Part shown: positions 4,446 to 48,394 of the stretch, one piece after another
Layout of the letters: each line of letters starts with the position of its first letter
How positions within the stretch are numbered: position 1 is the first letter of the stretch
DNA from: Nemertoderma westbladi
Lineage: Eukaryota; Animalia; Xenacoelomorpha
Direction of reading: 5' to 3'
Assembly: GCA_032718475.1 (NCBI GenBank)
Contig: JAUCBJ010002979.1
Span: 1 to 64,000, forward strand
Length of the DNA stretch: 64,000 nucleotides
Program-made: the position numbers and the translations under genes
Notes under the pieces: model-generated
Database searches by the model: none
What the model saw: only the letters and a program-made list of their open reading frames with translations
Told to the model about the DNA's origin: nothing

Positions 4446-4613
4446 ATTTAAAGTTAACAATCGAGAGATGCGATTATACGATATCGGAGAACCGGAAAAT
4501 CGTGTCTCATTGGGAAGAGTTCCGGGAAATCGGACAACATCAGCACAACAATCAGATCAAGCTACTGGAGAAAGAATTGGAAGATATGAAGGAAACATTT
4601 GATGAGATGACAC
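4446..4613 (+). CDS. CCDC83: CCDC83-like, exon b
   Basis: ttgcag|AT TTA...ACA C|gttagt; 168 bp, phase 1-1; HWEEFREIGQHQHNNQIKLLEKELEDMKETFDEMT resembles CCDC83 YWEEYKNVGSERHAKLI. Confidence 0.88.
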
Positions 4614-7600
4614 GTTAGTAGGACATCATGCTTATAATGATGACACGTTAGTAGGACATCATGCTTATAATAATACATCATGCTTATAATACTGGCACGT
4701 TAGTAGGACATCATGCTTATAATACTGGCACGTTAGTAGGACATCATGCTTATAATACTGGCACGTTAGTAGGACATCATGCTTATAATAATGGCACGTT
4801 AGTAGGATATCATGCTTATAATAATGGCACGTTAGTAGGATATCATGCTTATAATAATGGCACGTTAGTAGGACATCATGCTTATAATAATGGCACGTTA
4901 GTAGGACATCATGCTTATAATAATGGCACGTTAGTAGGACATCATGCTTATAATAATGGCACGTTAGTAGGACATCATGCTTATAATACTGGCACGTTAG
5001 TAGGACATCATGCTTATAATACTGGCACGTTAGTAGGACATCATGCTTATAATAATGGCACGTTAGTAGGACATCATGCTTATAATACTGGCACGTTAGT
5101 AGGACATCATGCTTATAATACTGGCACGTTAGTAGGACATCATGCTTATAATAATGGCACGTTAGTAGGATATCATGCTTATAATAATGGCACGTTAGTA
5201 GGATATCATGCTTATAATAATGGCACGTTAGTAGGACATCATGCTTATAATAATGGCACGTTAGTAGGACATCATGCTTATAATAATGGCACGTTAGTAG
5301 GACATCATGCTTATAATGATGACACGTTAGTAGGACATCATGCTTATAATACTGGCACGTTAGTAGGACATCATGCTTATAATAATGGCACGTTAGTAGG
5401 ACATCATGCTTATAATAATGGCACGTTAGTAGGATATCATGCTTATAATAATGGCACGTTAGTAGGACATCATGCTTATAATAATGGCACGTTAGTAGGA
5501 TATCATGCTTATAATAATGGCACGTTAGTAGGACATCATGCTTATAATAATGGCACGTTAGTAGGATATCATGCTTATAATAATGGCACGTTAGTAGGAC
5601 ATCATGCTTATAATAATGGCACGTTAGTAGGACATCATGCTTATAATAATGGCACGTTAGTAGGACATCATGCTTATAATAATGGCACGTTAGTAGGACA
5701 TCATGCTTATAATAATGGCACGTTAGTAGGACATCATGCTTATAATAATGGCACGTTAGTAGGATATCATGCTTATAATAATGGCACGTTAGTAGGACAT
5801 CATGCTTATAATAATGGCACGTTAGTAGGACATCATGCTTATAATAATGGCACGTTAGTAGGACATCATGCTTATAATAATGGCACGTTAGTAGGACATC
5901 ATGCTTATAATACTGGCACGTTAGTAGGACATCATGCTTATAATACTGGCACGTTAGTAGGACATCATGCTTATAATAATGGCACGTTAGTAGGACATCA
6001 TGCTTATAATAATGGCACGTTAGTAGGATATCATGCTTATAATAATGGCACGTTAGTAGGACATCATGCTTATAATAATGGCACGTTAGTAGGACATCAT
6101 GCTTATAATAATGGCACGTTAGTAGAACATCATGCTTATAATAATGGCACGTTAGTAGGAGGGACATGCTTATAATAATGGCACGTTAGTAGGACATCAT
6201 GCTTATAATAATGGCACGTTAGTAGGACATCATGCTTATAATAATGGCACGTTAGTAGGACATCATGCTTATAATACTGGCACGTTAGTAGGACATCATG
6301 CTTATAATACTGGCACGTTAGTAGGACATCATGCTTATAATAATGGCACGTTAGTAGGACATCATGCTTATAATAATGGCACGTTAGTAGGATATCATGC
6401 TTATAATAATGGCACGTTAGTAGGACATCATGCTTATAATAATGGCACGTTAGTAGGACATCATGCTTATAATAATGGCACGTTAGTAGGACATCATGCT
6501 TATAATAATGGCACGTTAGTAGGACATCATGCTTATAATAATGGCACGTTAGTAGGACATCATGCTTATAATAATGGCACGTTAGTAGGACATCATGCTT
6601 ATAATAATGGCACGTTAGTAGGACATCATGCTTATAATAATGGCACGTTAGTAGGACATCATGCTTATAATAATGGCACGTTAGTAGGACATCATGCTTA
6701 TAATGATGACACGTTAGTAGGACATCATGCTTATAATACTGGCACGTTAGTAGGACATCATGCTTATAATAATGGCACGTTAGTAGGACATCATGCTTAT
6801 AATAATGGCACGTTAGTAGGATATCATGCTTATAATAATGGCACGTTAGTAGGACATCATGCTTATAATAATGGCACGTTAGTAGGATATCATGCTTATA
6901 ATAATGGCACGTTAGTAGGACATCATGCTTATAATAATGGCACGTTAGTAGGATATCATGCTTATAATAATGGCACGTTAGTAGGACATCATGCTTATAA
7001 TAATGGCACGTTAGTAGGACATCATGCTTATAATAATGGCACGTTAGTAGGACATCATGCTTATAATAATGGCACGTTAGTAGGACATCATGCTTATAAT
7101 AATGGCACGTTAGTAGGACATCATGCTTATAATAATGGCACGTTAGTAGGATATCATGCTTATAATAATGGCACGTTAGTAGGACATCATGCTTATAATA
7201 ATGGCACGTTAGTAGGACATCATGCTTATAATAATGGCACGTTAGTAGGACATCATGCTTATAATAATGGCACGTTAGTAGGACATCATGCTTATAATAC
7301 TGGCACGTTAGTAGGACATCATGCTTATAATACTGGCACGTTAGTAGGACATCATGCTTATAATAATGGCACGTTAGTAGGACATCATGCTTATAATAAT
7401 GGCACGTTAGTAGGATATCATGCTTATAATAATGGCACGTTAGTAGGACATCATGCTTATAATAATGGCACGTTAGTAGGACATCATGCTTATAATAATG
7501 GCACGTTAGTAGAACATCATGCTTATAATAATGGCACGTTAGTAGGAGGGACATGCTTATAATAATGGCACGTTAGTAGGACATCATGCTTATAATAATG

Positions 7601-8231
7601 GCACGTTAGTAGGACATCATGCTTATAATAATGGCACGTTAGTAGGACATCATGCTTATAATACTGGCACGTTAGTAGGACATCATGCTTATAATACTGG
7701 CACGTTAGTAGGACATCATGCTTATAATAATGGCACGTTAGTAGGACATCATGCTTATAATAATGGCACGTTAGTAGGATATCATGCTTATAATAATGGC
7801 ACGTTAGTAGGACATCATGCTTATAATAATGGCACGTTAGTAGGACATCATGCTTATAATAATGGCACGTTAGTAGGACATCATGCTTATAATAATGGCA
7901 CGTTAGTAGGACATCATGCTTATAATAATGGCACGTTAGTAGGACATCATGCTTATAATAATGGCACGTTAGTAGGACATCATGCTTATAATAATGGCAC
8001 GTTAGTAGGACATCATGCTTATAATAATGGCACGTTAGTAGGACATCATGCTTATAATAATGGCACGTTAGTAGGACATAATGCTTATAATAATGGCACG
8101 TTAGTAGGACATCATGCTTATAATAATGGCACGTTAGTAGGACATCATGCTTATAATAATGGCACGTTAGTAGGACATCATGCTTATAATAATGGCACGT
8201 TAGTAGGAAGGACATGCTTATAATAATTACA
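4606..8231 (+). repeat. 33-bp minisatellite, about 109 copies, starting at the exon b splice donor
   Basis: Unit GTTAGTAGGACATCATGCTTATAATAATGGCAC. A variant marker (GTAGAAC...GGAGGGACATG) recurs near 6125 and 7512, indicating an approximately 1387-bp higher-order duplication. Confidence 0.97.
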
Positions 8232-8295
8232 CAATATTATCTAAGATTAATCAATTTTGCTAATGGATGCAATTTCACAATCATCCGTCTATGTA

Positions 8296-9077: not shown

Positions 9078-9116
9078 TATATAATATAAGATTCTGTTCT
9101 TTTTACTGTCCATTAG

Positions 9117-9208
9117 GTTTCATGGAGAAGTTATTGGCATCAAGCAAAGAAGAAATTCTGGAGAGAACAAAGCAGCTTCTTGATAACATCAAGGATAATG
9201 CCGCAGTG
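9117..9208 (+). CDS. CCDC83: CCDC83-like, exon c
   Basis: cattag|GT TTC ATG...GCA GTG|gtgggt; phase 1 matches exon b (C|GT = Arg); FMEKLLASSKEEILERTKQLLDNIKDNAAV. Confidence 0.87.
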
Positions 9209-9477: not shown

Positions 9478-9668
9478 AAAGCATCTGGTACCCTCGACCT
9501 CAGGGACAAAGAAGAAATGGTTGACTTTGATTGGTTGAAAAAGGAAGCCAAAGTTCACGTCGAATCATACGGAGATAAACTTTGTGAGGTGGAGGAATTG
9601 GAGCGAGGAAACCTACAACTTATGAGCGAGCTGTTTGACTGTCGCATCGAAGATTTAAAAATATCAAA
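9478..9668 (+). CDS. CCDC83: CCDC83-like, exon d
   Basis: cctag|AAA...TCA AA|gtaaga; DWLKKEAKVH...LERGNLQLMSELFDCRIEDLKIS resembles CCDC83 NDWLKKEIAIH...[23 protein letters not shown]. Confidence 0.9.
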
Positions 9669-10492: not shown

Positions 10493-10625
10493 GAACTTTC
10501 TACTCACACAAATGGACGATGCATTCACCGAAGATCCAGGGTTGTTAGAGAAAGATTTATCTGCTATTGATTTTGACGTAACCAGAAAGGATACGGCCTA
10601 CAGGGGGGCTGTGGGAGGCATCGAG
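10493..10625 (+). CDS. CCDC83: CCDC83-like, exon e
   Basis: tttcag|G AAC TTT CTA CTC ACA CAA...ATC GAG|gtaggt; phase 2 in, phase 0 out; NFLLTQ resembles CCDC83 RLYLTQ. The last 40 nt belong to the first minisatellite unit. Confidence 0.82.
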
Positions 10626-13600
10626 GTAGGTCGGGGAAGGATACGGCCTACAGGGGGCTGTGGGAGGCATCGAGGTAGGTCGGGAAAGGATACGGCCTAC
10701 AGGAGGCTGTGGGAGGCATCGAGGTAGGCTGGGAAAGGATACGGCCTACAGGGGGGCTGTGGGGGGCATCGAGGTAGGTCGGGAAATGATACGGCCTACA
10801 GGGGGGCTGTGGGAGGCATCGAGGTAGGTCGGGAAAAGATACGGCCTACAGTAGGGCTGTGGGAGGCATCGATGTAGGTGGGGAGAGGATACGGCCTACA
10901 GTGGGGATGTGTGAGGCATCGAGGTAGGTCGGGAAAGGATACGGACTACAGGGGGGCTGTGGGAGGTATCGAGGTAGGTCGAGAAATGATACGGCCTACA
11001 GGGGGGCTGTGGGAGGCATCGAGGTAGGTCGGGAAAAGATACGGCCTACAGTAGGGCTGTGGGAGGCATCGATGTAGGTGGGGAGAGGATACGGCCTACA
11101 GTGGGGATGTGGGAGGCATCGAGGTAGGTCGGGAAAGGATACGGCCTACAGGGGGCTGTCGGAGGCATTGATGTAGGTGGGGAAAGGATACGGCCTACAG
11201 GGGGGCTGTGGGGGGCATCGAGGTAGGTCGGGAAAGTATACGGCCTACAGGGGGGCTGTGGGAGGCATCGATGTAGGTCGGGAAAGGATACGGCCTACAG
11301 GGGGCTCTGGGAAGCATCGAGGTAGGTGGGGAAAGGATACGGACTACAGGGGGGCTGTGGGAGGTATCGAGGTAGGTCGGGATAGGATACGGCCTACAGG
11401 GGGCTGTGGGAGGCATCGAGGTAGGTCGGGAAAGGATACGGACTACAGGGGGGCTGTGGGAGGTATCGAGGTAGGTGGGGAAATGATACGGCCTCAGGGG
11501 GCTGTGGGAGGCATCGAGGTAGGCTGGGAAAGGATACGGCCTACAGGGGGGCTGTGGGGGGCATCGATGTAGGTGGGGAGAGGATACGGCCTACAGTGGG
11601 GATGTGGGAGGCATCGAGGTAGGTCGGGAAAGGATACGGCCTACAGGGGGGTTGTGGGAGGCATTGATGTAGGTGGGGAAAGGATACGGCCTACAGGGGG
11701 GCTGTGGGGGGCATCGAGGTAGGTCGGGAAAGTATACGGCCTACAGGGGGGCTGTGGGAGGCATCGATGTAGGTCGGGAAAGGATACGGCCTACAGGGGT
11801 CTCTGGGAAGCATCGAGGTAGGTGGGGAAAGGATACGGACTACAGGGGGGCTGTGGGAGGTATCGAGGTAGGTCGGGAAAGGATACGGCCTACAGGGGGC
11901 TGTGGGAGGCATCGAGGTAGGTCGGGAAAGGATACGGACTACAGGGGGGCTGTGGGAGGTATCGAGGTACGTGGGGAAAGGATACGGCCTCAGGGGGCTG
12001 TGGGAGGCATCGAGGTAGGTCGGGAAAGGATACGGCCTACAGGGGGCTGTGGGAGGCATCGAAAGGATACGGACTACAGGGGGGCTGTGGGAGGTATCGA
12101 GGTAGGTGGGGAAAGGATACGGCCTACAGGGGGCTGTGGGAGGCACCGAGGTAGGTCGTGAAAGGATACGGACTACAGGGGGGCTGTGGGAGGTATCGAG
12201 GTAGGTAGGGAAAGGATACGGCCTACAGGGGGCTGTGGGAGGCATCGAGGTAGGTCGGGAAAGGATACGGCCTACAGGGGGCTGTGGGAGGCATCGAAAG
12301 GATACGGACTACAGGGGGGCTGTGGGAGGTATCGAGGTAGGTCGGGAAATGATACGGCCTACAGGGGGGCTGTGGGAGGCATCGAGGTAGGTCGGGAAAA
12401 GATACGGCCTACAGTGGGGCTGTGGGAGGTATCGAGGTAGGTCGGGAAAGGATACGGCCTACAGGGGGGCTGTGGGAGGTATCGAGGTAGGTGGGGAAAG
12501 GATACGGCCTACAGGGGGGTTGTGGGAGGCATTGATGTAGGTGGGGAAAGGATACGGCCTACAGGGGGGCTGTGGGGGCATCGAGGTAGGTCGGGAAAGG
12601 ATACGGCCTACAGGGGGGTTGTGGGAGGCATTGATGTAGGTGGGGAAAGGATACGGCCTACAGGGGGGCTGTGGGGGCATCGAGGTAGGTCGGGAAAGTA
12701 TACGGCCTACAGGGGGGCTGTGGGAGGCATCGATGTAGGTCGGGAAAGGATACGGCCTACAGGGGGCTGTCGGAGGCATTGATGTAGGTGGGGAAAGGAT
12801 ACGGCCTACAGGGGGGCTGTGGGGGGCATCGAGGTAGGTCGGGAAAGTATACGGCCTACAGGGGGGCTGTGGGAGGCATCGATGTAGGTCGGGAAAGGAT
12901 ACGGCCTACAGGGGGCTCTGGGAAGCATCGAGGTAGGTGGGGAAAGGATACGGACTACAGGGGGGCTGTGGGAGGTATCGAGGTAGGTCGGGATAGGATA
13001 CGGCCTACAGGGGGCTGTGGGAGGCATCGAGGTAGGTCGGGAAAGGATACGGACTACAGGGGGGCTGTGGGAGGTATCGAGGTAGGTGGGGAAAGGATAC
13101 GGCCTCAGGGGGCTGTGGGAGGCATCGAGGTAGGCTGGGAAAGGATACGGCCTACAGGGGGGCTGTGGGGGGCATCGATGTAGGTGGGGAGAGGATACGG
13201 CCTACAGTGGGGATGTGGGAGGCATCGAGGTAGGTCGGGAAAGGATACGGCCTACAGGGGGGTTGTGGGAGGCATTGATGTAGGTGGGGAAAGGATACGG
13301 CCTACAGGGGGGCTGTGGGGGGCATCGAGGTAGGTCGGGAAAGTATACGGCCTACAGGGGGGCTGTGGGAGGCATCGATGTAGGTCGGGAAAGGATACGG
13401 CCTACAGGGGTCTCTGGGAAGCATCGAGGTAGGTGGGGAAAGGATACGGACTACAGGGGGGCTGTGGGAGGTATCGAGGTAGGTCGGGAAAGGATACGGC
13501 CTACAGGGGGCTGTGGGAGGCATCGAGGTAGGTCGGGAAAGGATACGGACTACAGGGGGGCTGTGGGAGGTATCGAGGTACGTGGGGAAAGGATACGGCC

Positions 13601-16600
13601 TCAGGGGGCTGTGGGAGGCATCGAGGTAGGTCGGGAAAGGATACGGCCTACAGGGGGCTGTGGGAGGCATCGAAAGGATACGGACTACAGGGGGGCTGTG
13701 GGAGGTATCGAGGTAGGTGGGGAAAGGATACGGCCTACAGGGGGCTGTGGGAGGCACCGAGGTAGGTCGTGAAAGGATACGGACTACAGGGGGGCTGTGG
13801 GAGGTATCGAGGTAGGTAGGGAAAGGATACGGCCTACAGGGGGCTGTGGGAGGCATCGAGGTAGGTCGGGAAAGGATACGGCCTACAGGGGGCTGTGGGA
13901 GGCATCAAAAGGATACGGACTACAGGGGGGCTGTGGGAGGTATCGAGGTAGGTCGGGAAATGATACGGCCTACAGGGGGGCTGTGGGAGGCATCGAGGTA
14001 GGTCGGGAAAAGATACGGCCTACAGTGGGGCTGTGGGAGGTATCGAGGTAGGTCGGGAAAGGATACGGCCTACAGGGGGGCTGTGGGAGGTATCGAGGTA
14101 GGTGGGGAAAGGATACGGCCTACAGGGGGGTTGTGGGAGGCATTGATGTAGGTGGGGAAAGGATACGGCCTACAGGGGGGCTGTGGGGGCATCGAGGTAG
14201 GTCGGGAAAGGATACGGCCTACAGGGGGGTTGTGGGAGGCATTGATGTAGGTGGGGAAAGGATACGGCCTACAGGGGGGCTGTGGGGGCATCGAGGTAGG
14301 TCGGGAAAGTATACGGCCTACAGGGGGGCTGTGGGAGGCATCGATGTAGGTCGGGAAAGGATACGGCCTACAGGGGGCTGTCGGAGGCATTGATGTAGGT
14401 GGGGAAAGGATACGGCCTACAGGGGGGCTGTGGGGGGCATCGAGGTAGGTCGGGAAAGTATACGGCCTACAGGGGGGCTGTGGGAGGCATCGATGTAGGT
14501 CGGGAAAGGATACGGCCTACAGGGGGCTCTGGGAAGCATCGAGGTAGGTGGGGAAAGGATACGGACTACAGGGGGGCTGTGGGAGGTATCGAGGTAGGTC
14601 GGGATAGGATACGGCCTACAGGGGGCTGTGGGAGGCATCGAGGTAGGTCGGGAAAGGATACGGACTACAGGGGGGCTGTGGGAGGTATCGAGGTAGGTGG
14701 GGAAAGGATACGGCCTCAGGGGGCTGTGGGAGGCATCGAGGTAGGCTGGGAAAGGATACGGCCTACAGGGGGGCTGTGGGGGGCATCGATGTAGGTGGGG
14801 AGAGGATACGGCCTACAGTGGGGATGTGGGAGGCATCGAGGTAGGTCGGGAAAGGATACGGCCTACAGGGGGGTTGTGGGAGGCATTGATGTAGGTGGGG
14901 AAAGGATACGGCCTACAGGGGGGCTGTGGGGGGCATCGAGGTAGGTCGGGAAAGTATACGGCCTACAGGGGGGCTGTGGGAGGCATCGATGTAGGTCGGG
15001 AAAGGATACGGCCTACAGGGGTCTCTGGGAAGCATCGAGGTAGGTGGGGAAAGGATACGGACTACAGGGGGGCTGTGGGAGGTATCGAGGTAGGTCGGGA
15101 AAGGATACGGCCTACAGGGGGCTGTGGGAGGCATCGAGGTAGGTCGGGAAAGGATACGGACTACAGGGGGGCTGTGGGAGGTATCGAGGTACGTGGGGAA
15201 AGGATACGGCCTCAGGGGGCTGTGGGAGGCATCGAGGTAGGTCGGGAAAGGATACGGCCTACAGGGGGCTGTGGGAGGCATCGAAAGGATACGGACTACA
15301 GGGGGGCTGTGGGAGGTATCGAGGTAGGTGGGGAAAGGATACGGCCTACAGGGGGCTGTGGGAGGCACCGAGGTAGGTCGTGAAAGGATACGGACTACAG
15401 GGGGGCTGTGGGAGGTATCGAGGTAGGTAGGGAAAGGATACGGCCTACAGGGGGCTGTGGGAGGCATCGAGGTAGGTCGGGAAAGGATACGGCCTACAGG
15501 GGGCTGTGGGAGGCATCAAAAGGATACGGACTACAGGGGGGCTGTGGGAGGTATCGAGGTAGGTCGGGAAATGATACGGCCTACAGGGGGGCTGTGGGAG
15601 GCATCGAGGTAGGTCGGGAAAAGATACGGCCTACAGTGGGGCTGTGGGAGGTATCGAGGTAGGTCGGGAAAGGATACGGCCTACAGGGGGGCTGTGGGAG
15701 GTATCGAGGTAGGTGGGGAAAGGATACGGCCTACAGGGGGGTTGTGGGAGGCATCGAGGTAGGTCGGGAAAGGATGCGGCCTACAGGGGGCTGTGGGAGG
15801 CATCGAGGTAGGTCGTGAAAGGATACGGCCTACAGGGGGCTGTGGGAAGCATCGAGGTAGGTGGGGAAAGGATACGGCCTACAGGGGGGCTGTGGGAGGC
15901 ATCGAGGTAGGTCGGGAAAGGATACGACCTACAGGGGGCCTGTGGGAGGCATCGAGGTAGGTCGGGAAAGGATGCGGCCTACAGGGGGCTGTGGAAGGCA
16001 TCGAGGTAGGTCGGGAAAGGATACGGCCTACAGGGGGGCTGTGGGAGGCATCGAGGTAGGTCGGGAAAGGATACGGCCTACAGGGGGCTGTGGGAGGCAT
16101 CGAGGTAGGTGGGGAAAGGATACGGCCTACAGGGGGGCTGTGGGAGGCATCGAGGTAGGTCGGGAAAGGATACGGCCTACAGGGGGCCTGTGGGAGGCAT
16201 CGAGGTAGGTGGGGAAAGGATACGGCCTACAGGGGGGCTGTGGAAGGCATCGAGGTAGGTCGGGAAAGGATACGGCCTACAGGGGCTGTGGGAGGCATCG
16301 AGGTAGGTGGGGAAAGGATACGGCCTACAGGGGGCTGTGGGAGGCATCGAGGTAGGTCGGGAAAGGATACGGCCTACAGAGGGCTGTGGGAGGCATCGAG
16401 GTATGCCGGGAAAGGATACGGTCTACAGGGGGCTGTGGGAGGCATCGAGGTAGGTCGCGAAAGGATACGGACTACAGGGGGGCTGTGGGAGGTATCGAGG
16501 TAGGTGGGGAAAGGATACGGCCTACAGGGGGCTGTGGGAGGCATCGAGGTAGGTCGGGAAAGGATACGGCCTACAGGGGGCTGTGGGAGGCATCGAGGTA

Positions 16601-17501
16601 GGCTGGGAAAGGATACGGCCTACAGGGGGCTGTGGGAGGCATCGAGGTAGGTCGAGAAAGGATACGGACTACAGGGGGGCTGTGGGAGGTATCGAGGTAG
16701 GTGGGGAAAGGATACGGCCTACAGGGGGCTGTGGGAGGCACCGAGGTAGGTCGTGAAAGGATACGGACTACAGGGGGGCTGTGGGAGGCATCGAGGTAGG
16801 TGGAGAAAGGATACGGCCTACAGGGGGCTGTGGGAGGCATCGAGGTAGGTCGGGAAAGGATGCGGCCTACAGGGGGCTGTGGAAGGCATCGAGGTAGGTC
16901 GTGAAAGGATACGGCCTACAGGGGGCTGTGGGAAGCATCGAGGTAGGTGGGGAAAGGATACGGCCTACAGGGGGGCTGTGGGAGGCATCGAGGTAGGTCG
17001 GGAAAGGATACGACCTACAGGGGGCCTGTGGGAGGCATCGAGGTAGGTCGGGAAAGGATGCGGCCTACAGGGGGCTGTGGAAGGCATCGAGGTAGGTCGG
17101 GAAAGGATACGGCCTACAGGGGCTGTGGGAGGCATCGAGGTAGGTGGGGAAAGGATACGGCCTACAGGGGGCTGTGGGAGGCATCGAGGTAGGCCGGGAA
17201 AGGATACGGCCTACAGGGGGCTGTGGGAGGCATCGAGGTAGGCCGGGAAAGGATACGGCCTACAGGGGGCTGTGGGAGGCATCGAGGTAGGTGGGGAAAG
17301 GATACGGCCTACAGGGGGGCTGTGGGAGGCATCGAGGTAGGCCGGGAAACGATACGGCCTACAGGGGGCTGTGGGAGGCATCGAGGTAGGTCGGGAAAGG
17401 ATGCGGCCTACAGGGGGCTGTGGGAGGCATCGAGGTAGGTGGGGAAAGGATACGGTCTACAGAGGGCTGTGGGAGGCATCGAGGTAGGTCGGGAAAGGAT
17501 A
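10586..17501 (+). repeat. G-rich 49/50-bp minisatellite, about 140 copies, with 1611-bp higher-order repeat
   Basis: Unit AAAGGATACGGCCTACAGGGGGGCTGTGGGAGGCATCGAGGTAGGTCGGG. Near-identical spurious ORFs recur at 11177, 12788 and 14399 (period 1611). Confidence 0.97.
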
Positions 17502-17800
17502 GTAAGTCACACAGTCAGGGTTAACAAACTAGGAGTATTCTTTGTAAATCGATCCGTAATACAGTCCGCATTTCTGGGCTCGGGTTAATAGGTATTGTAG
17601 TGGCGTTATTGTAATATTATTTCCTTCATTACTTCGTAAATGTTAATATGATAGTTAAAATATTTTAACTTTAAAAATATTTATTGTACTGCCAATAAAC
17701 TAGGTTGCCGAATAATAAAAAAAACACATTTCATTCAAATTAAAATCTTAGAATATCCGTCTTTACGGCCTAAATTAATTAAGTATCCGTCCCCTAGGTA

Positions 17801-20366
17801 TTATATTAAATACCATTAATTAATTAATACAATTTATATTAAATACCATTAATTAATTAATACAATTTATATTAAATACCATTAATTAATTAATACAATT
17901 TATATTAAATACCATTAATTAATTAATTCAATTTATATTAAATACCATTAATTAATTAATACAATTTATATTAAATACCATTAATTAATTAATACAATTT
18001 ATATTAAATACCATTAATTAATTAATACAATTTATATTAAATAGCATTAATTAATTAATACAATTTATATTAAATAGCATTAATTAATTAATTCAATTTA
18101 TATTAAATACCATTAATTAATTAATACAATTTATATTAAATACCATTAATTAATTAATACAATTTATATTAAATACCATTAATTAATTAATACAATTTAT
18201 ATTAAATACCATTAATTAATTAATACAATTTATATTAAATACCATTAATTAATTAATACAATTTATATTAAATAGCATTAATTAATTAATTCAATTTATA
18301 TTAAATACCATTAATTAATTAATACAATTTATATTAAATACCATTAATTAATTAATACAATTTATATTAAATACCATTAATTAATTAATTCAATTTATAT
18401 TAAATACCATTAATTAATTAATACAATTTATATTAAATACCATTAATTAATTAATACAATTTATATTAAATACCATTAATTAATTAATACAATTTATATT
18501 AAATAGCATTAATTAATTAATTCAATTTATATTAAATACCATTAATTAATTAATACAATTTATATTAAATACCATTAATTAATTAATACAATTTATATTA
18601 AATACCATTAATTAATTAATTCAATTTATATTAAATACCATTAATTAATTAATACAATTTATATTAAATACCATTAATTAATTAATACAATTTATATTAA
18701 ATACCATTAATTAATTAATACAATTTATATTAAATAGCATTAATTAATTAATTCAATTTATATTAAATACCATTAATTAATTAATACAATTTATATTAAA
18801 TACCATTAATTAATTAATACAATTTATATTAAATAGCATTAATTAATTAATACAATTTATATTAAATAGCATTAATTAATTAATACAATTTATATTAAAT
18901 ACCATTAATTAATTAATACAATTTATATTAAATAGCATTAATTAATTAATTCGATTTATATTAAATACCATTAATTAATTAATACAATTTATATTAAATA
19001 CCATTAATTAATTAATTCAATTTATATTAAATACCATTAATTAATTAATACAATTTATATTAAATACCATTAATTAATTAATACAATTTATATTAAATAG
19101 CATTAATTAATTAATACAATTTATATTAAATAGCATTAATTAATTAATTCAATTTATATTAAATACCATTAATTAATTAATACAATTTATATTAAATACC
19201 ATTAATTAATTAATACAATTTATATTAAATACCATTAATTAATTAATACAATTTATATTAAATAGCATTAATTAATTAATACAATTTATATTAAATACCA
19301 TTAATTAATTAATACAATTTATATTAAATACCATTAATTAATTAATACAATTTATATTAAATAGCATTAATTAATTAATACAATTTATATTAAATACCAT
19401 TAATTAATTAATACAATTTATATTAAATACCATTAATTAATTAATACAATTTATATTAAATACCATTAATTAATTAATACAATTTATATTAAATACCATT
19501 AATTAATTAATACAATTTATATTAAATACCATTAATTAATTAATACAATTTATATTAAATACCATTAATTAATTAATACAATTTATATTAAATAGCATTA
19601 ATTAATTAATACAATTTATATTAAATACCATTAATTAATTAATACAATTTATATTAAATACCATTAATTAATTAATACAATTTATATTAAATAGCATTAA
19701 TTAATTAATACAATTTATATTAAATACCATTAATTAATTAATACAATTTATATTAAATACCATTAATTAATTAATACAATTTATATTAAATACCATTAAT
19801 TAATTAATACAATTTATATTAAATACCATTAATTAATTAATACAATTTATATTAAATAGCATTAATTAATTAATACAATTTATATTAAATACCATTAATT
19901 AATTAATACAATTTATATTAAATAGCATTAATTAATTAATACAATTTATATTAAATACCATTAATTAATTAATACAATTTATATTAAATACCATTAATTA
20001 ATTAATACAATTTATATTAAATACCATTAATTAATTAATACAATTTATATTAAATAGCATTAATTAATTAATACAATTTATATTAAATAGCATTAATTAA
20101 TTAATTCAATTTATATTAAATACCATTAATTAATTAATACAATTTATATTAAATACCATTAATTAATTAATACAATTTATATTAAATACCATTAATTAAT
20201 TAATACAATTTATATTAAATAGCATTAATTAATTAATACAATTTATATTAAATACCATTAATTAATTAATACAATTTATATTAAATACCATTAATTAATT
20301 AATACAATTTATATTAAATACCATTAATTAATTAATACAATTTATATTAAATACCATTAATTAATT
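17801..20366. repeat. Very AT-rich 33-bp minisatellite, about 78 copies
   Basis: Unit TTATATTAAATACCATTAATTAATTAATACAAT, containing the palindrome ATTAATTAATTAAT; variants TAGC/TACC and TTCA/TACA. Confidence 0.97.
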
Positions 20367-20589
20367 GAATAATTTAGTCATGGATTTCCATGATTACAAG
20401 CCATATCAGCAAATATTCCAGAACATTTTTAAACAAACTGGTGGGTAGGCCATGCTGGTACCACCGGCCACATATCGGCCACATGTATCATTTACAACGC
20501 CTTTGTTTTTACCTTGCGTAGGCCTGCTGCCGTTATGTATTTATTCGTGTTTAATTTCCCATATATTATTCTACTTATTCCTCGCCATG

Positions 20590-21060
20590 AATTCATCTTT
20601 GGGCACAAGTAAAGCAAAATGGTCCCTACTTCGCCCTGTCTACACCACCTGCCATTTTTTTCACCAATCCTTTTTTAGTGTTTTTTTTTATGCTTTTTTG
20701 GTAGTGGTCAATGTTCTAGAAAATTAGTATATATGTTTTTTTTATGGTAGCTAGTGTTTTTTTACTAGCTAGTATTTATTGAAATTATAAAAAATGCGAC
20801 GTTGCTATTTTAGGTTTAAACTACAACAGGTTAACCAACAGTTTACAGTTTATATTCGTTTTTTTTAATTTTCAAAAAAATACAAGCTACCATTAAAAAA
20901 ATATCTACGAATTTTCTAGAACATTCACCAATACCAAAAAAAACCTTAAAAAACACTAATAAATTTATTTGTAATATTAATATATTATTATATTATAATA
21001 TATTGTAATAAATTAAACTAATTTTGGGACTCTTTTATTTGACAAGTGCCCATCTTTGGC
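20590..21060. mobile_element. Degenerate palindromic (MITE-like) element
   Basis: Inverted arms: GGGCAC...GGTCCC / GGGAC...GTGCCC, and TTGGTAGTGGTCAATGTTCTAGAAAATT / AATTTTCTAGAACATTCACCAATACCAA. Ends approximate. Confidence 0.5.
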
Positions 21061-21200
21061 TTATAACATATCAGGCAAATGACATCCCTGCCATTTATAA
21101 AACTCGTTATGTTATTGATTAACGTTCAACACTGTTAATTATCTAATTAATTAATTACCATAATACTAGCTAGTTAAACGATTCTTGGGCAAAGTTGCTA

Positions 21201-21476
21201 TTGGGCGGGCAACACACTCCAGCACCTATGCGACATGGGTACCTTATTGGGCGGGCAACACACTCCAGCACCTATGCGACATGGGTACCTTATTAGGCGG
21301 GCAACACACTCCAGCACCTATGCGACATGGGTACCTTATTGGGCGGGCAACACACTCCAGCACCTAGGCGACATGGGTACCTTATTGGGCGGACAACACA
21401 CTCCAGCACCTATGCGACATGGGTACCTTATTGGGCGGACAACACACTCCAGCACCTATGCGACATGGGTACCTTA
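21201..21476. repeat. 46-bp tandem repeat, 6 copies
   Basis: Unit TTGGGCGGGCAACACACTCCAGCACCTATGCGACATGGGTACCTTA. Confidence 0.95.
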
Positions 21477-22128
21477 ATTTACCTACATTTTCATTTTTTT
21501 TTTAAACCTGTGTATTTTATGTAAAACGGTATGCATGTACATTTATTAATCATATATGTTACATTTGCATAAATATACCACAATATACTGTTTATTAATT
21601 CTACACATTAATTGTTATCTTTGTAATCAGTTGGGTATGTTTTCTTTATGAGCTCGAGTAGTTCTTTAAATGGTGTTTGTTTATGCATCAACCGCCAGCG
21701 AATTCAGCTAGGTTTTGCTTCAACGTGTTCTAGAACGTAAATGTACAATAAAGGTTCTAAAACAAATGTAACTGATATAGCAACAATCTGAATAAGGCAA
21801 AAAAAAATCAAATTGAGGTATCCATGTCGTAGAAGTGCCCCCCCCCCCCCCCCCCCCCCACCCACTGTCACTAAACAATAACTGGAATTGAAAAGAGTAA
21901 AAGAAAAGACGGAAGTAATTCATTCATGGACATAATAAAAGAAATAAAAACAACCTACCCTGTTGATTAAATCAAATACTGTTTAGTAAAAACAACCTAC
22001 CGTGTTGATTAAATCAAATACTGTTTAAATACTGAAATATGTATGAAAATGTTGAATGTAATATCATTTAATTAATATAAAATATAAAAATAAATAAAAA
22101 TATTTTCCACTTTTAAAAAATGGGCTAG

Positions 22129-22720
22129 AGTTCCGTATAGAACTGCCATGAATGTCATTGTTACTATGGCAACGTTGAATAGTTCTATAACAATAGAACA
22201 AGTAATATATACTATTCTAGAACATAAATAAATTAAAAAATATTATGTTCTAGAACATATAGCTAGTAAATAAAATATATTTTTTTTTTAGATTTTAAAA
22301 TAGCAATTTTCCCTTACGTATCTGACGTCTCCACAAGTATTCGGTAAGTTCTTCAGATAATTTCTCTTGATAGGCTTTACACTCCTTGCACCATGCTCTT
22401 GCGTCATAAATTTTTCTAATTTTTAGCCTTTACATTTCTTTTAATCGCTGTGAGTTGACCTGTGTGTATTTCGCAACCCCTTTGATATTCTGGACTCTTT
22501 CATATTGCCTGCTGTTTATTTACCGACTGCTGTTATACTGGTACATTAAAAAAAATATGTTAAATGTAAAAAATTACTAGATACTATCTAGAACAATAAT
22601 TTTTTTATTTTATTTTTGTTCTAGAATAGTGTATATTATATATTTTTTGTTCTAGAACTCTTCACTGTGGCCATGGTAACAATGATTTATGTTATAAAAA
22701 ATGCAGTTCCATACGGAACT
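22129..22720. mobile_element. Inverted-repeat element with X-box-like and TTCTAGAA motifs in its arms
   Basis: AGTTCCGTATAGAACTGC ... GCAGTTCCATACGGAACT termini; about 160-bp imperfect inverted arms. Confidence 0.6.
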
Positions 22721-25285: not shown

Positions 25286-25409
25286 ATTAACTAAATAACT
25301 TAAATATAAATGTTTGTAATGAATTAATAAAACCTCTGCTACTATGGCAACTTTTAATTAGAATCAATCAAGGATTAGGCCTACTCGTCACTGTGTTCGA
25401 GTAAACATA

Positions 25410-27611: not shown

Positions 27612-27637
27612 GTAAGTATAAGTATTGTATATGTGGA

Positions 27638-31783: not shown

Positions 31784-33956
31784 TATGGCATACTTTTAGT
31801 ATTTTTATTCGACATTTTATTTCCCCTTGATATTCTTCTGAATTTAGTCGCGAGATAAATGATTAAACTCGCGAGAAAATTATCAAACTCGCGAGAAAAT
31901 TATTATTCTCACGAGAAAATCATTAAACTCGCGAGAAAAATGATTAAACTCGCGAACAAATAATTAATCTCGCGAGGTAAATGATTAAACTCGCGAGAAA
32001 ATAATTAAACTCGCGAGAAAATAATTAATCTCGCGAGATAAATGATTAAACTCGCGAGAAAATGATTAAACTCGCGAGATAAATGATTAAACTCGCGAGA
32101 AAATAATTAATCTCGCGAGATAAATGATTAAACTCGCGAGAAAATAATTAAACTCTCGAGAATATAATTAATCTCGCGAGATAAATGATTAAACTCGCGA
32201 GATAAATGATTAAACTCGCGAGAAAATTATCAAACTCGCGAGAAAATTATTATTCTCACGAGAAAATCATTAAACTCGCGAGGAGAAAATGATTAAACTC
32301 GCGAACAAATAATTAATCTCGCGAGGTAAATGATTAAACTCGCGAGAAAAATACACATCTCACGAAAAAAGTCGCGATTGGCTGTTAATTGGGACAGTAG
32401 GAAACGGCCATCCAATAGCAGCAGAGGAAATACCCTTACACGTGCAATAGGGATATATATAATAGATATTAAATAGGCCTTCTTTCTATATCATTCATTT
32501 CAGCATACCGTAACATTATCTCTGCCTCCTGTCTGTATTAAGGGGCATCGTGTCGAGTTTAGGGAAGCATGTTTGTTTATACAAGCCAGAGTTGCAATAT
32601 TGTATTTGTACTTTGGTACAATAGCCATTTGGGCTGCCTGGCGCGCGGCGCTGCGCGGTGCGGCGGTCCCTATTCTGGACTGAATTTTTGTTTAGCAGTA
32701 GTCAGATGCATGATTTCTACTTAATGTGATTCTTTTAAATTCAATAAAAATTAATAATTCAACAAACCATTAAATTGATGCACTATATTAAGTGGTGATA
32801 CAGTTTATTATTAGCGCCCATGGGCCCATGTGAAGAATACCAGGATTTCACTTTTCGGACGACCTTTTATTGGAATTTTATATAAAGATTGTTATTTTTT
32901 TTTATTTATCTTTATTAAATGTTTTATAGCGTTTATTTCTGTCTTATAACCTGTACATACATATACTATTTCGTTTATTGTTTTGGTTAAATTCAGCCCT
33001 TCTGTAACCTGTGTTTTTGGTTAAAACCTGGTATTCTTCACATGGGGGTAACTGCAAAGTGAAATATAGCGGCAGAAAGTCTGGTATTCTTCATATGGGC
33101 CATTATTAGTATTATGCTGTTGATACGTTGGCTGAATTGGGCCAAATAAAAGTCGCCTCTAAAAGTCGCGTTACGGCTAATTGTCGCGTTACAGCTAAAT
33201 TTTTGAGAGATTAGCCATAACGCGACTTTCAAAGTCGCGGTACGGCTACTCAAAATGTTGCGTTATGGCTAATCTATTGTCTTGGTTTTATAAAGGGAAT
33301 CATTATCAATATTATTCTATGGTGTTTACGTACATATGAGGTCCGAAAAATGTAATGTAATAATGTTTTACAGCGTGGGAGTATCTGGGGGGGGGGGGGG
33401 GGATTAATCATTTATCTCGCGAGATTATTTAATTTCTCGCGAGTTTAATCATTTATCTCGCGAGATTAATTAATTTCTCGCGAGTTTAATCATTTATCTC
33501 ACGAGATTCTTTAATTTCTCGCGAGTTTAATCATTTATCTCGCGAGATTAATTAATTTCTCGCGAGTTTAATAATTTATCTCGCGAGATTAATTATTTTC
33601 TCGCGAGTTTAATCATTTATCTCGCGAGTTTAATCTTTTATCTTGCGAGATTAATTATTTTCTCGCGAGTTTAATTATTTTCTCGCGAGATTAATTATTT
33701 TCTCGCGAGTTTAATCATTTATCTCGCGAAATTAATTATTTTTTCACGAGTTTAATCATTTATCTCGCGAGATTTATAATTGTCTCGCGAGTTTAATCAT
33801 TTTTCTCGCGATTTTAATGATTTTCTCGTGAGAATAATAATTTTCTCGCGAGTTTGATAATTTTCTCGCGAGTTTAATCATTTATCTCGCGACTAAATTC
33901 AGAAGAATATCAAGGGGAATTAAAATGTTGAATGAAAATACTAAAAGTATGCCATA
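31784..33956. mobile_element. Foldback-type non-autonomous DNA transposon
   Basis: TIR TATGGCATACTTTTAGTATTTT...GAATTTAGTCGCGAG followed by about 500 bp of approximately 20-bp CTCGCGAG subrepeats, mirrored at 33403-33956. 6-bp TSD AAACGT at 31778-31783 and 33957-33962. Confidence 0.9.
32822..33101. mobile_element. MITE-like element nested inside the foldback element
   Basis: GGCCCATGTGAAGAATACCAGG, inverted at 33028-33048 and 33081-33101; the same motif occurs at 56201-56222. Confidence 0.55.
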
Positions 33957-41492: not shown

Positions 41493-41694
41493 CTAAAAAT
41501 AAATGCAGTTCTTACGGTTTAGGTGATGTAACTTTTTTAATACATTTTCGAAGATTAAATATGTATTAACGGAATCTCTGGAATTTTGGCTGAGTTAGGA
41601 TACAGTATAGATCGCCCTATATTTACATACCCTTAGCACAATGGACTAACTTTACAAAATTTCCCCTTGATTTTGCGATCTTTCGAAAAAACTA

Positions 41695-41791
41695 TTAATA
41701 GACCTATGTTGTTTGTTAATAGACCTATGTTAATATTAATAGACCTATGTTAATATTAATAGACCTATGTTAATATTAATAGACCTATGTT
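41695..41791. repeat. Approximately 20-bp tandem repeat, about 5 copies
   Basis: TTAATAGACCTATGTTAATA-like units. Confidence 0.85.
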
Positions 41792-42326: not shown

Positions 42327-45300
42327 AGAGTCTATTAAATACTTTTGTCTTTAGTAATTCAACTGACTTACGGGAGAGTCTATTAAATACTTTTGTCTTT
42401 AGTAATTCAACTGACTTTGGGAGATTCTATGAAACACTTTGTTGTTGGTCAATTCCGTTAGTAATTCAACTGACTTACGGGAGAGTCTATTAAATACTTT
42501 TGTCTTTAGTAATTCAACTGACTTACGGGAGAGTCTATGAAACACTTTGTTGTTGGTCAATTCCGTTAGTAATTCAACTGACTTACGGGAGAGTCTATTA
42601 AATACTTTTGTCTTTAGTAATTCAACTGACTTACGGGAGAGTCTATGAAACGCTTTGTTGTTGGTCAATTCCGTTAGTAATTCAACTGACTTACGGGAGA
42701 GTCTATGAAACGCTTTGTTGTTGGTCAATTCCGTTAGTAATTCAACTGACTTACGGGGGAGTCTATTAAATACTTTTGTCTTTAGTAATTCAACTGACTT
42801 ACGGGAGAGTCTATGAAACGCTTTGTTGTTGGTCAATTCCGTTAGTAATTCAACTGACTTACGGGGGAGTCTATTAAATACTTTTGTCTTTAGTAATTCA
42901 ACTGACTTACGGGAGAGTCTATTAAACGCTTTGTTGTTGGTGAATTCCGTTAGTAATTCAACTGACTTACAGGAGAGTCTATTAAATACTTTTGTCTTTA
43001 GTAATTCAACTGACTTACGGGAGAGTCTATTAAACGCTTCGTTGTTGGTCAATTACGTTAGTAATTCAACTGACTTACGGGAGAGTCTATGAAACGCTTT
43101 GTTGTTGGTCAATTCCGTTAGTAATTCAACTGACTTACGGGGGAGTCTATTAAATACTTTTGTCTTTAGTAATTCAACTGACTTACGGGAGAGTCTATGA
43201 AACGCTTTGTTGTTGGTCAATTCCGTTAGTAATTCAACTGACTTACGGGGGAGTCTATTAAATACTTTTGTCTTTAGTAATTCAACTGACTTACGGGAGA
43301 GTCTATGAAACGCTTTGTTGTTGGTCAATTCCGTTAGTAATTCAACTGACTTACGGGGGAGTCTATTAAATACTTTTGTCTTTAGTAATTCAACTGACTT
43401 ACGGGAGAGTCTATGAAACGCTTTGCTGTTGGTCAATTCCGTTAGTAATTCAACTGACTTACGGGGGAGTCTATTAAATACTTTTGTCTTTAGTAATTCA
43501 ACTGACTTACGGGAGAGTCTATGAAACGCTTTGTTGTTGGTCAATTCCGTTAGTAATTCAACTGATTTACGGGAGAGTCTATTAAATACTTTTGTCTTTA
43601 GTAATTCAACTGACTTTGGGAGAGTCTATGAAACGCTTTGTTGTTGGTCAATTCCGTTAGTAATTCAACTGACTTACGGGGGAGTCTATTAAATACTTTT
43701 GTCTTTAGTAATTCAACTGACTTACGGGAGAGTCTATGAAACGCTTTGTTGTTGGTCAATTCCGTTAGTAATTCAACTGACTTACGGGGGAGTCTATTAA
43801 ATACTTTTGTCTTTAGTAATTCAACTGACTTACGGGAGAGTCTATGAAACGCTTTGTTGTTGGTCAATTCCGTTAGTAATTCAACTGACTTACGGGAGAG
43901 TCTATTAAATACTTTTGTCTTTACTAATTCAACTGACTTCGGGAGAGTCTATGAAACGCTTTGTTGTTGGTCAATTCCGTTAGTAATTCAACTGACTTAC
44001 GGGAGAGTCTATGAAACGCTTCGTTGTTGGTCAATTCCATTAGTAATTCAACTGACTTACGGGAGAGTCTATTAAATACTTTCGTCTTTAGTAATTTAAC
44101 TGACTTACGGGAGAGTCTATTAAATACTTTTGTCTTTAGTAATTTAACTGACTTACGGGAGAGTCTATGAAACGCTTTGTTGTTGGTCAATTCCGTTAGT
44201 AATTCAACTGACTTACGGGAGAGTCTATTAAATACTTTCGTCTTTAGTAATTCAACTGACTTACGGGAGAGTCTATTAAATACTTTTGTCTTTAGTAATT
44301 CAACTGATTTACGGGAGAGTCTATTAAATACTTTTGTCTTTAGTAATTCAACTGATTTACGGGAGAGTCTATTAAATACTTTTGTCTTTAGTAATTCAAC
44401 TGACTTACGGGAGAGTCTATTAAACGCTTTGTTGTTGGTCAATTCCGTTAGTAATTCAACTGACTTACGGGGGAATCTATTAAATACTTTTGTCTTTAGT
44501 AATTCAACTGACTTACGGGAGAGTCTATGAAACGCTTTGTTGTTGGTCAATTCCGTTAGTAATTCAACTGACTTACGGGAGAGTCTATTAAATACTTTCG
44601 TCTTTAGTAATTCAACTGACTTACGGGAGAGTCTATTAAATACTTTCGTCTTTAGTAATTCAACTGACTTACGGGAGAGTCTATTAAATACTTTTGTCTT
44701 TAGTAATTCAACTGACTTACGGGAGAGTCTATTAAACGCTTTGTTGTTGGTCAATTCCGTTAGTAATTCAACTGACTTACGGGGGAATCTATTAAATACT
44801 TTTGTCTTTAGTAATTCAACTGACTTACGGGAGAGTCTATTAAACGCTTTGTTGTTGGTCAATTCCGTTAGTAATTCAACTGACTTACGGGGGAATCTAT
44901 TAAATACTTTTGTCTTTAGTAATTCAACTGACTTACGGGAGAGTCTATTAAACGCTTTGTTGTTGGTCAATTCCGTTAGTAATTCAACTGACTTACGGGG
45001 GAATCTATTAAATACTTTTGTCTTTAGTAATTCAACTGACTTACGGGAGAGTCTATTAAACGCTTTGTTGTTGGTCAATTCCGTTAGTAATTCAACTGAT
45101 TTACGGGAGAGTCTATTAAATACTTTTGTCTTTAGTAATTCAACTGACTTACGGGAGAGTCTATTAAACGCTTTGTTGTTGGTCAATTCCGTTAGTAATT
45201 CAACTGACTTACGGGGGAATCTATTAAATACTTTTGTCTTTAGTAATTCAACTGACTTACGGGGATTCTATTAAACGCTTTGTTGTTGGTCAATTCCGTT

Positions 45301-45824
45301 AGTAATTCAACTGACTTACGGGGGAATCTATTAAATACTTTTGTCTTTAGTAATTCAACTGACTTACGGGAGAGTCTATTAAACGCTTTGTTGTTGGTCA
45401 ATTCCGTTAGTAATTCAACTGACTTACAGGAGAGTCTATTAAATACTTTTGTCTTTAGTAATTCAACTGACTTACGGGAGAGTCTATGAAACGCTTTGTT
45501 GTTGGTCAATTCCGTTAGTAATTCAACTGACTTACGGGAGAGTCTATTAAATACTTTCGTCTTTAGTAATTCAACTGACTTACGGGAGAGTCTATTAAAT
45601 ACTTTTGTCTTTAGTAATTCAACTGACTTACGGGAGAGTCTATTAAACGCTTTGTTGTTGGTCAATTCCGTTAGTAATTCAACTGACTTACGGGGGAATC
45701 TATTAAATACTTTTGTCTTTAGTAATTCAACTGACTTACGGGAGAGTCTATGAAACGCTTTGTTGTTGGTCAATTCCGTTAGTAATTCAACTGACTTACG
45801 GGGGAGTCTATGAAACGCTTTGTT

Positions 45825-45863
<39 letters not shown>

Positions 45864-48394
45864 ATAGCCGTATATTTATTATTAAAGCTTGTAAAAACAG
45901 CTGATGCACATCAGATCGCATAGCAACCACCACCAACTACCAGACAAATATACACTGTTAAATTAATACTACAGTTAGTATATGATACTGTCTGACTGTC
46001 CTCCAAACTTGGAGGGTTGTTATCCACAGTCGCCTACGCCGGGTTGCAGTCGGCATTGCTGTGGATGATCGACTCCACGTCGCACCGAACCGGACGCCGC
46101 TTAGCTGATCGACAGCCGCGAAGGCACAGGAGGGCTGACCGCAAAAGGGCGAAACTCAACCTCCTGCGAACCCACACAACACACTCTGAATAGCGGACCT
46201 CGCGTTTGTCAGCCAGTTTCAACGCGAGACGCTTGATAAACTGTGTGGCTGACGGTGAAGCTCCACCAAACGCAGAGAATATAAGGGGAGTGAAGCTGGC
46301 GTGCTCCACCTCCCTCAACCGCTCTTCGTATTTGAGCCTCTTGCGAGACTTATGGTGTAGGTGGGATGCCGGAAGGGACATCGCGGCGTTGGTGTCCGCC
46401 AGCGGGTTGAAGACAGACACGTCGATGAACGTTTTCCGGAAACGGTTTCCCCAGAATCCGCTCACCGACACATCCAGCCTCGCCTGCTGGTCCGTCGATG
46501 TCGACCGATGGCTGAACGTCTCGCCCGATAGTGGCTGCAGAAGCGGTTCCACCCCGACATTGTTTGAAACGCTTTGTTGTTGGTCAATTCCGTTAGTAAT
46601 TCAACTGACTTACGGGAGAGTCTATTAAATACTTTTGTCTTTAGTAATTCAACTGACTTACGGGAGAGTCCATAAAACGCTTCGTTGTTGGTCAATTCCG
46701 TTAGTAATTCAACTGACTTACGGGAGAGTCTATTAAATACTTTTGTCTTTAGTAATTCAACTGACTTACGGGAGAGTCTATGAAACGCTTTGTTGTTGGT
46801 CAATTCCGTTAGTAATTCAACTGACTTACGGGAGAGTCTATGAAACGCTTTGTTGTTGGTCAATTCCGTTAGTAATTCAACTGACTTACGGGAGAGTCTA
46901 TGAAACGCTTTGTTGTTGGTCAATTCCGTTAGTAATTCAACTGACTTACGGGAGAGTCTATTAAATACTTTTGTCTTTAGTAATTCAACTGACTTACGGG
47001 AGAGTCTATGAAACGCTTTGTTGTTGGTCAATTCCGTTAGTAATTCAACTGACTTACGGGAGAGTCTATTAAATACTTTTGTCTTTAGTAATTCAACTGA
47101 CTTACGGGAGAGTCCATAAAACGCTTCGTTGTTGGTCAATTCCGTTAGTAATTCAACTGACTTACGGGAGAGTCTATGAAACGCTTTGTTGTTGGTCAAT
47201 TCCATTAGTAATTCAACTGACTTACGGGAGAGTCTATTAAATACTTTTGTCTTTAGTAATTCAACTGACTTACGGGAGAGTCCATGAAACGCTTCGTTGT
47301 TGGTCAATTCCGTTAGTAATTCAACTGATTTACGGGAGAGTCTATTAAATACTTTTGTCTTTAGTAATTCAACTGACTTACGGGGAGTCCATGAAACGCT
47401 TCGTTGTTGGTCAATTCCGTTAGTAATTCAACTGACTTACGGGAGAGTCTATGAAACGCTTCGTTGTTGGTCAATTCCGTTAGTAATTCAACTGATTTAC
47501 GGGAGAGTCTATTAAATACTTTTGTCTTTAGTAATTCAACTGACTTACGGGAGAGTCTATGAAACGCTTCGTTGTTGGTCAATTCCGTTAGTAATTCAAC
47601 TGATTTACGGGAGAGTCTATTAAATACTTTTGTCTTTAGTAATTCAACTGACTTACGGGAGAGTCTATGAAACGCTTTGTTGTTGGTCAATTCCGTTAGT
47701 AATTCAACTGACTTACGGGATAGTCTATTAAATACTTTTGTCTTTAGTAATTCAACTGACTTACGGGAGAGTCTATGAAACGCTTTGTTGTTGGTCAATT
47801 CCGTTAGTAATTCAACTGACTTACGGGATAGTCTATTAAATACTTTTGTCTTTAGTAATTCAACTGACTTACGGGAGAGTCTATGAAACGCTTTGTTGTT
47901 GGTCAATTTCGTTAGTAATTCAACTGACTTACGGGATAGTCTATTAAATACTTTCGTCTTTAGTAATTCAACTGACTTACGGGAGAGTCTATGAAACGCT
48001 TTGTTGTTGGTCAATTCCGTTAGTAATTCAACTGACTTACGGGATAGTCTATTAAATACTTTTGTCTTTAGTAATTCAACTGACTTACGGGAGAGTCTAT
48101 GAAACGCTTTGTTGTTGGTCAATTTCGTTAGTAATTCAACTGACTTACGGGATAGTCTATTAAATACTTTCGTCTTTAGTAATTCAACTGACTTACGGGA
48201 GAGTCTATGAAACGCTTTGTTGTTGGTCAATTCCGTTAGTAATTCAACTGATTTACGGGAGAGTCTATTAAATACTTTTGTCTTTAGTAATTCAACTGAC
48301 TTACGGGAGAGTCTATTAAATACTTTTGTCTTTAGTAATTCAACTGACTTACGGGAGAGTCTATGAAACGCTTTGTTGTTGGTCAATTCCGTTA
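42327..48394 (-). repeat. Composite 48-bp/60-bp minisatellite, about 98 units, starting at the exon 3 donor and interrupted by a LINE insertion
   Basis: Minus-strand units TAAAGACAAAAGTATTTAATAGACTCTCCCGTAAGTCAGTTGAATTAC (48 bp) and TAACGGAATTGACCAACAACAAAGCGTTTCATAGACTCTCCCGTAAGTCAGTTGAATTAC (60 bp), interleaved. Confidence 0.97.
45828..46564 (-). mobile_element. 5'-truncated CRE-like non-LTR retrotransposon (restriction-like endonuclease domain, 3' UTR, poly(A))
   Basis: ORF ARLDVSVSGFWG..TFIDVSVFNP..KYEERLREVEHASFTPLIFSAFGG..RRLSFALLRS..CLRG; about 31-nt poly(A) tail (poly-T on + to 45858); TSD TGAAACGCTTTGTTGTT at 45811 and 46565; GC-rich relative to host. Confidence 0.88.

Follow-up and report, generated by a model that had tools for sequence, protein, structure and literature searches.

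Minisatellites that multiply an exon–intron boundary have been described in lancelets and in humans. Passages of two lancelet papers (PMC3087553, PMC3902484) describe 'mirages', tandem repeats of exon–intron boundaries in several genes (Adh3, troponin C, the globins BflGb6 and BflGb9, and PGBD5) that give no aberrant mRNA and were suggested to characterise the lineage generally. For human F7, the available text of PMC1557585 reports a 37-bp variable-number tandem repeat (VNTR) in intron 7, of whose 5–9 identical donors (5' splice sites) only the most upstream is used. Sections of PMC5954066 describe a 25-bp VNTR in intron 18 of human ABCA7, with 12 to ~427 units and up to 10.7 kb, in which some use of the second-unit donor yields out-of-frame RNA, and an excerpt of PMC2630376 gives a 31-bp VNTR in human CBS, c.1444_1467+7(16_21), with 24 exon and 7 intron nt per unit. 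The main text of PMC2812944 adds internal tandem repeats at exon–intron boundaries as a class catalogued from human segmental duplications, with 162 alignments and 27 curated intron modifications, and the donor-array form is untreated in passages of PMC10078293, a catalogue of associations between repeats and splicing. Here, we analysed 64,000 nt of Nemertoderma westbladi (contig JAUCBJ010002979.1, assembly GCA_032718475.1, forward strand; hereafter the window), in which four large arrays, A1–A4, lie at the starts of introns of two adjacent genes, gene A (a predicted CCDC83, plus strand) and gene B (minus strand). An earlier note on this DNA, made from its letters, named no described system of this form while allowing that one might exist; that the form is undescribed is wrong in view of the lancelet mirages and of human F7, CBS and ABCA7.

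Arrays were called with Tandem Repeats Finder across the window (GC content ~36%, spliceosomal introns present), which returned several smaller arrays and the following five of multi-kb length.

4606-8227, plus strand: array A1, 33-bp unit, ~108 copies
10585-17501, plus strand: array A2, 48-50-bp G-rich unit, ~141 copies
27634-30160, plus strand: array A3, 23/21-bp unit, ~113 copies
42327-48394, minus strand: array A4, interleaved 48- and 60-bp units, interrupted by an insertion
17801-20371, plus strand: fifth multi-kb array, 33-bp AT-rich unit (9% GC), ~78 copies

A1–A4 measure 2.5–7 kb each, occupy ~18 kb of the window combined, have unrelated units and sit at 4 of the 13 modelled donors of the two genes. 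The claim that four of the five multi-kb arrays lie at donors and carry a GT on the sense strand of their host was borne out, with 85–135 donor look-alikes with intact GT per array. The fifth array is off-donor, 300 nt past A2 in the same CCDC83 intron, has no GT on the host strand and contains 78 sense ATTAAA hexamers. We read A1–A4 as unrelated minisatellites at intron starts that are neutral passengers of the lancelet mirage or human F7 kind, with a probability of roughly 0.7.

The likeness to the mirages, as presented in the passages cited, lies in boundary-spanning repeats in several genes of one invertebrate with units of 10–160 bp, a range that also holds the head-to-tail units of A1–A4. 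Unlike the mirages, given there with 2–7 copies, the arrays here have ~100–140, and whereas the lancelet set includes acceptor-side repeats, donors only are involved here (4:0, not significant). Those passages contain no genome-wide test. The F7 repeat, in the part of its description consulted, likewise has its first unit across the junction and identical pseudo-donors downstream, but comprises 5–9 copies in one gene with minigene-tested donor use, against four arrays in two genes. According to the same sections of PMC5954066, the ABCA7 array belongs to the same size class and starts at the donor GT; its length is tied to lower expression, next-exon skipping and disease. The CBS unit, as excerpted, has the anatomy of the 60-bp unit of A4, in 16–21 copies. 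The segmental-duplication class shares boundary repeats but concerns intron gain in primate paralogues, with donor or acceptor unmentioned in the main text. No genome-wide donor-versus-acceptor test of arrays was found in the literature searched, which was mostly non-subscription and without supplements. Taken singly, each array is unremarkable within a class already described, and it is the density that stands out. The interferon-inducible 6-16 minisatellite is reportedly a related system.

Host genes and anatomy of the units

Exon 9478-9668 of gene A was used as a homology query, and an exhaustive protein search returned 34 relatives. Ten of these were looked up and comprised four CCDC83 or CCDC83-like proteins (brachiopod, lancelet, lungfish and Ciona), one CCDC164, one uncharacterised (acoel), one hypothetical and three without a name. 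The gene A model, with eight exons in the window and 446 stop-free residues, aligns full-length to CCDC83 proteins (BLASTP E=6e-65 for Lingula and 8e-56 for Branchiostoma, both named CCDC83-like), and its prediction as CCDC83 was thereby confirmed at the level of homology. A word-indexed protein search with one CCDC83 exon gave no match, an atlas search with a gene A exon gave no usable match, and Pfam returned no family for exons of gene A or gene B, with one weak DUF7801 match below cut-off. Earlier CCDC83 exons were not found in 1-3650.

3656-3824, plus strand: CCDC83 exon, first one visible in the window
4446-4613, plus strand: CCDC83 exon, donor CAC/GTTAGT (the slash marks the junction); its last 8 nt are the exon part of the first A1 unit
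9117-9208, plus strand: CCDC83 exon, gene model and homology
9478-9668, plus strand: CCDC83 exon, homology query
10493-10625, plus strand: CCDC83 exon, end at 10577 or 10625, both in frame
27043-27193, plus strand: CCDC83 exon, phase-0 acceptor
27349-27611, plus strand: CCDC83 exon, donor GAT/GTAAGT
30233-30406, plus strand: CCDC83 last coding exon, gene model and homology

Gene B comprises six exons, with 757 aa open when the first A4 donor is used. No homologue was identified (Pfam; the atlas search gave only scores <0.9), and its junctions are therefore supported by frame and splice signals. The earlier assignment of the arrays to two genes on opposite strands holds by homology for CCDC83 and by frame only for gene B.

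50084-49897, minus strand: gene B exon, frame
49029-48866, minus strand: gene B exon, frame
48454-48353, minus strand: gene B exon, donor CCC/GTAAGT, frame evidence only
41992-41857, minus strand: gene B exon downstream of A4, phase-1 acceptor
41492-41299, minus strand: gene B exon, frame
40213-38727, minus strand: gene B exon, 1487 nt

The likely last exon of gene B starts at 38570. A donor at 48396 was rejected, its reading yielding 39 stops.

Relative to the modelled donors, the 5' edges of the arrays lie at -8 (A1), -41 (A2), +22 (A3) and -42 nt (A4); the earlier placement of all edges within ~26 nt of an exon end fails for A2 and A4, which begin 41–42 nt inside the exon. A1 and A4 have units that duplicate the exon–intron junction, and in both arrays the first unit spans the boundary. 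The A1 unit consists of 8 nt of exon tail and 25 nt of intron; the exon is reproduced exactly in its second copy, later ones show two base differences, and GT is intact in 109 of 109 donor copies. Both A4 units span one donor, the 60-bp unit copying the last 42 exon nt and the 48-bp unit the last 12, and GT is kept in 95 of 98 copies and lost in 3. Across the A1 junction, 14 of 14 homologues align without a gap; across the A3 junction, 11 of 14 do. A1 and A4 have the defining anatomy of the donor-spanning minisatellite class.

The A2 start at 10585 falls between two in-frame donors, GAC/GTAACC (10577, 5/9 consensus bases) and GAG/GTAGGT (10625, 7/9), and its unit comprises exon tail, donor and intron head only if the later one is used. 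Homologues scored the short exon model higher in 9 of 14 cases, equal in 3 and lower in 2, in a region that is a variable linker. GT is present in all 135 anchored A2 copies; six further, shortened units lack the donor part. The array is bounded by a 9-nt direct repeat and contains a 1611-nt higher-order repeat. A donor ATA/GTAAGT at its 3' end (17501) was rejected as phase 1 against the phase-0 acceptor, and no phase-bridging exon in 17502-27043 passed a simple filter.

A3 begins 22 nt into the intron and its first unit does not span the boundary. Its unit and the real donor have 7 nt (GTAAGTA) in common, and it may derive from a copy of the junction that has since diverged; GT is kept in 85 of 113 copies and lost in 28. 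A3 resembles the mirage class without being a strict member. The three-part composition that had been assigned to three arrays is therefore certain for A1 and A4 only, conditional on the 10625 donor for A2 and absent from A3. Across the arrays, unit donor signals score 6–7 of 9 consensus bases (per-unit shuffle P 0.03–0.14), and distinct units number 8 in A1, 48 in A2, 10 in A3 and 11+17 in A4, with the variants interspersed. Without their arrays, the host introns would measure 889 (A1), ~6000 (A2), 94 (A3) and 334 nt (A4).

Chance, origin and competing explanations

Enrichment was evaluated in the array-collapsed window (39,382 nt, 16 donors), leaving out of the count the array at 1-724, three inverted-pair sets and microsatellites; all P values are post hoc, the window having been picked for looking odd. 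Four of the 11 arrays with a visible 5' edge start at a donor, against 0.3–0.6 expected (P=2.4e-4 with 16 donors and a 75-nt target; P=1.6e-3 with 20 donors and 100 nt), and for four of the five multi-kb arrays P=4e-6. No array in the window overlaps an acceptor, and the earlier note had stated that none of the four is built from one; the donor-to-acceptor count of 4:0 gives only a one-sided P=0.06. The earlier judgement that chance overlap is unlikely thus stands within the window and is weakened by the way the window was chosen.

Minisatellites may be seeded from flanking direct repeats. We propose that slippage between short direct repeats copied a 20–60-nt stretch lying across or just past a donor, an event that took place twice at the A4 donor, and that the resulting pair would have grown to kilobases through ordinary minisatellite turnover, including exchanges of 1.4–1.6 kb. 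The microhomology slippage envisaged previously fits the short direct repeats at array ends (9 nt exact at A2 and A4, 6/8 at A1), and higher-order repeats point to recent exchange. Its suggested link to R-loops found no consistent support: a cause in R-loops or G-quadruplexes was rejected, the sense-strand GC skew of A1–A4 being inconsistent (+0.17, +0.52, +0.36 and ~-0.12) and a strict G-quadruplex motif being absent from the donor arrays.

Once formed, such an array would be tolerated, since splicing probably still takes the most upstream good donor, as in human F7, so that the added DNA would all be intronic, and stray use of a later donor in A1–A3 would give stop-containing RNA. Tolerance via the first donor, as the earlier note had it, fits the F7 experiments (PMC1557585) and the lancelet statements (PMC3087553, PMC3902484) in the parts consulted. 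A multiplied acceptor would presumably pull repeats into the exon more often, though lancelets have acceptor-side cases. The homology of CCDC83 and the open frames through the first donors support the reading of A1–A4 as neutral passengers, as do the lack of extra conservation in the donor 9-mers, the losses of GT (28 of 113 A3 copies, 3 of 98 A4 copies and six A2 units) and the insertion tolerated within A4. This insertion is a poly(A)-tailed retroelement 3' fragment (45826-46564, minus strand) flanked by a target-site duplication of up to 17 nt. A stop-free stretch of at least 157 aa runs through it, with 53 protein matches, 11 of them with PF00078, which we take to be the reverse transcriptase family, and the insert is likely the 3' fragment of a non-long-terminal-repeat retrotransposon.

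Tolerance only removes arrays and cannot enrich them, so the local excess needs a birth bias, a survival bias or ascertainment, and probably a birth or survival bias together with selection of the window. Survival might be biased, for example, if the exon pins one end so that an array cannot be deleted whole. Several points weigh against neutral passage. Four donor arrays in two adjacent genes exceed a uniform neutral expectation; only the large arrays sit at donors (4/5, versus 0/6 of the small ones; Fisher P=0.015); and GT is intact in all 109 A1 and all 135 anchored A2 copies, although the donor was part of the anchors and there is little variation at any site. The end repeats could be later partial units rather than seeds, and use of the first donor in A1–A4 is predicted from frame and homology. 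If A2 uses the weak donor at 10577, splicing would have to pass over a stronger in-frame donor 48 nt further on. Finally, ABCA7 indicates, in the sections of PMC5954066 consulted, that such arrays are not always neutral.

Among the alternatives, pure coincidence fares best, though we regard it as unlikely: a minisatellite-rich genome with short introns would have produced a window that drew notice because several arrays fell on donors by chance, with no genome-wide bias. Twelve arrays within 64 kb are in keeping with this, as are the two host introns that are 94 and 334 nt without arrays, so that any array there adjoins a splice site; moreover, P values of 2e-4 to 2e-3 are weak against some 250,000 windows scanned, and the donor-to-acceptor count of 4:0 reaches only P=0.06. 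What speaks against coincidence is that the A1 and A4 units copy the exon exactly, A4 twice, and that so many of the large arrays sit at donors.

A4 might instead be an alternative-donor ladder that lengthens the protein of gene B by repeats of 16 or 20 residues, which we consider improbable. Its units are multiples of three and stop-free in the exon frame, donors 1–18 all preserve that frame, which stays open for 363 aa into the array; however, distinct substitutions (6 synonymous, 15 nonsynonymous and 1 stop, versus 77:228:19 possible) are neutral, giving no sign of purifying selection over this open frame, five 59-nt units shift the frame, and the retroelement insertion interrupts the array. 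Read-through past the first donor meets a stop at once in A1 and nine codons later in A3, while A2 has no later in-frame, stop-free donor. Since later donors in A1–A3 add a stop or frameshift and never give an open frame, the alternative-donor reservoir previously considered is possible for A4 only.

U1 small nuclear ribonucleoprotein protects transcripts from early cleavage and polyadenylation (telescripting), and the arrays could have been kept as its binding sites for that end, or to recruit splicing factors. All four donor arrays are multi-kb and contain no sense AATAAA or ATTAAA, and the donors of A1 and A2 are intact, which would suit such a role. We nevertheless hold it to be highly improbable. 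In none of five unit types does the donor 9-mer show better conservation than the remaining 9-nt windows, the share of windows with no more alleles than the donor being 0.18, 0.14, 0.35, 0.81 and 0.83; with no extra conservation at donor positions and GT lost in 28 of 113 A3 copies, a functional U1 array is unsupported, and the retention as U1-binding arrays that had been put forward gains nothing from conservation. In addition, the arrays make up most of the length of the introns they would protect (A1, A3 and A4), and a donor-less 2.6-kb array with its 78 sense ATTAAA persists in the same gene.

That the assembly inflated or created the array lengths is scarcely credible: exact internal repeats of 1488 nt in A1 and 1847 nt in A2 would allow it, and copy numbers are as assembled, but four unrelated units are affected and the interspersed unit variants, together with the poly(A)-tailed insertion and its target-site duplication within A4, argue that the arrays are real.

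Other features of the window

Two further arrays lie near gene B. A short 20-bp array (41693-41791, minus strand) starts 65 nt past a gene B donor and was scored as not anchored. A degenerate 16-bp array (51323-52301, minus strand) holds 13 GTRAGT words on the gene B strand and directly follows an AG-to-GT stretch of ~100 nt (~52300-52405), 2.2 kb upstream of the modelled ATG of gene B. With no supported exon beside it, it was counted as not anchored; it might be a further, fifth donor array preceded by a 5' exon. Upstream of the first visible CCDC83 exon, a 63-bp array (1-724) is truncated by the window start.

The large CCDC83 intron contains, on the same strand, an intronless, divergent presenilin open reading frame (23933-25285, plus strand; 450 aa, Pfam E=1.6e-74), whose broad-coverage matches are only ~26–31% identical and which is likely a retrocopy. 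YD, GLGD and PALP motifs are visible in its translation. Between genes A and B, segments 36686-36656 and 31160-31070 (minus strand) could form a small two-exon gene of ~41 codons.

A third gene (57426-62170, plus strand), which we take to be FNBP4-like, was modelled with three exons and 166 aa open and contributed three donors to the count; its WW-like exon gave a match below the Pfam cut-off. An array at 63570-64000 comes after it, with no supported exon end nearby. The three inverted-orientation array pairs resemble, as judged by eye, the ends of foldback or miniature inverted-repeat transposable elements.

31848-32350 and 33404-33892: inverted array pair
48521-48612 and 48629-48717: inverted array pair
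54554-54758 and 56573-57019: inverted array pair

Meaning of multiplied donors

Beyond this window, we tentatively raise the possibility, well short of an expectation, that throughout this genome 5' splice sites are favoured places for large minisatellites to originate or survive, and that a sizeable share of introns owe most of their length to multiplied donors. If the density seen here were true of the genome, what is an anecdote in the lancelet mirages would become a mutational or survival bias open to measurement, and there would be a natural system for upstream-first donor choice outside mammals. Such a preference would give introns and genomes a way to expand that is tied to splice sites, so far a matter of single-gene anecdotes, and would offer natural tests by the thousand of how one donor is chosen by the spliceosome among a hundred.

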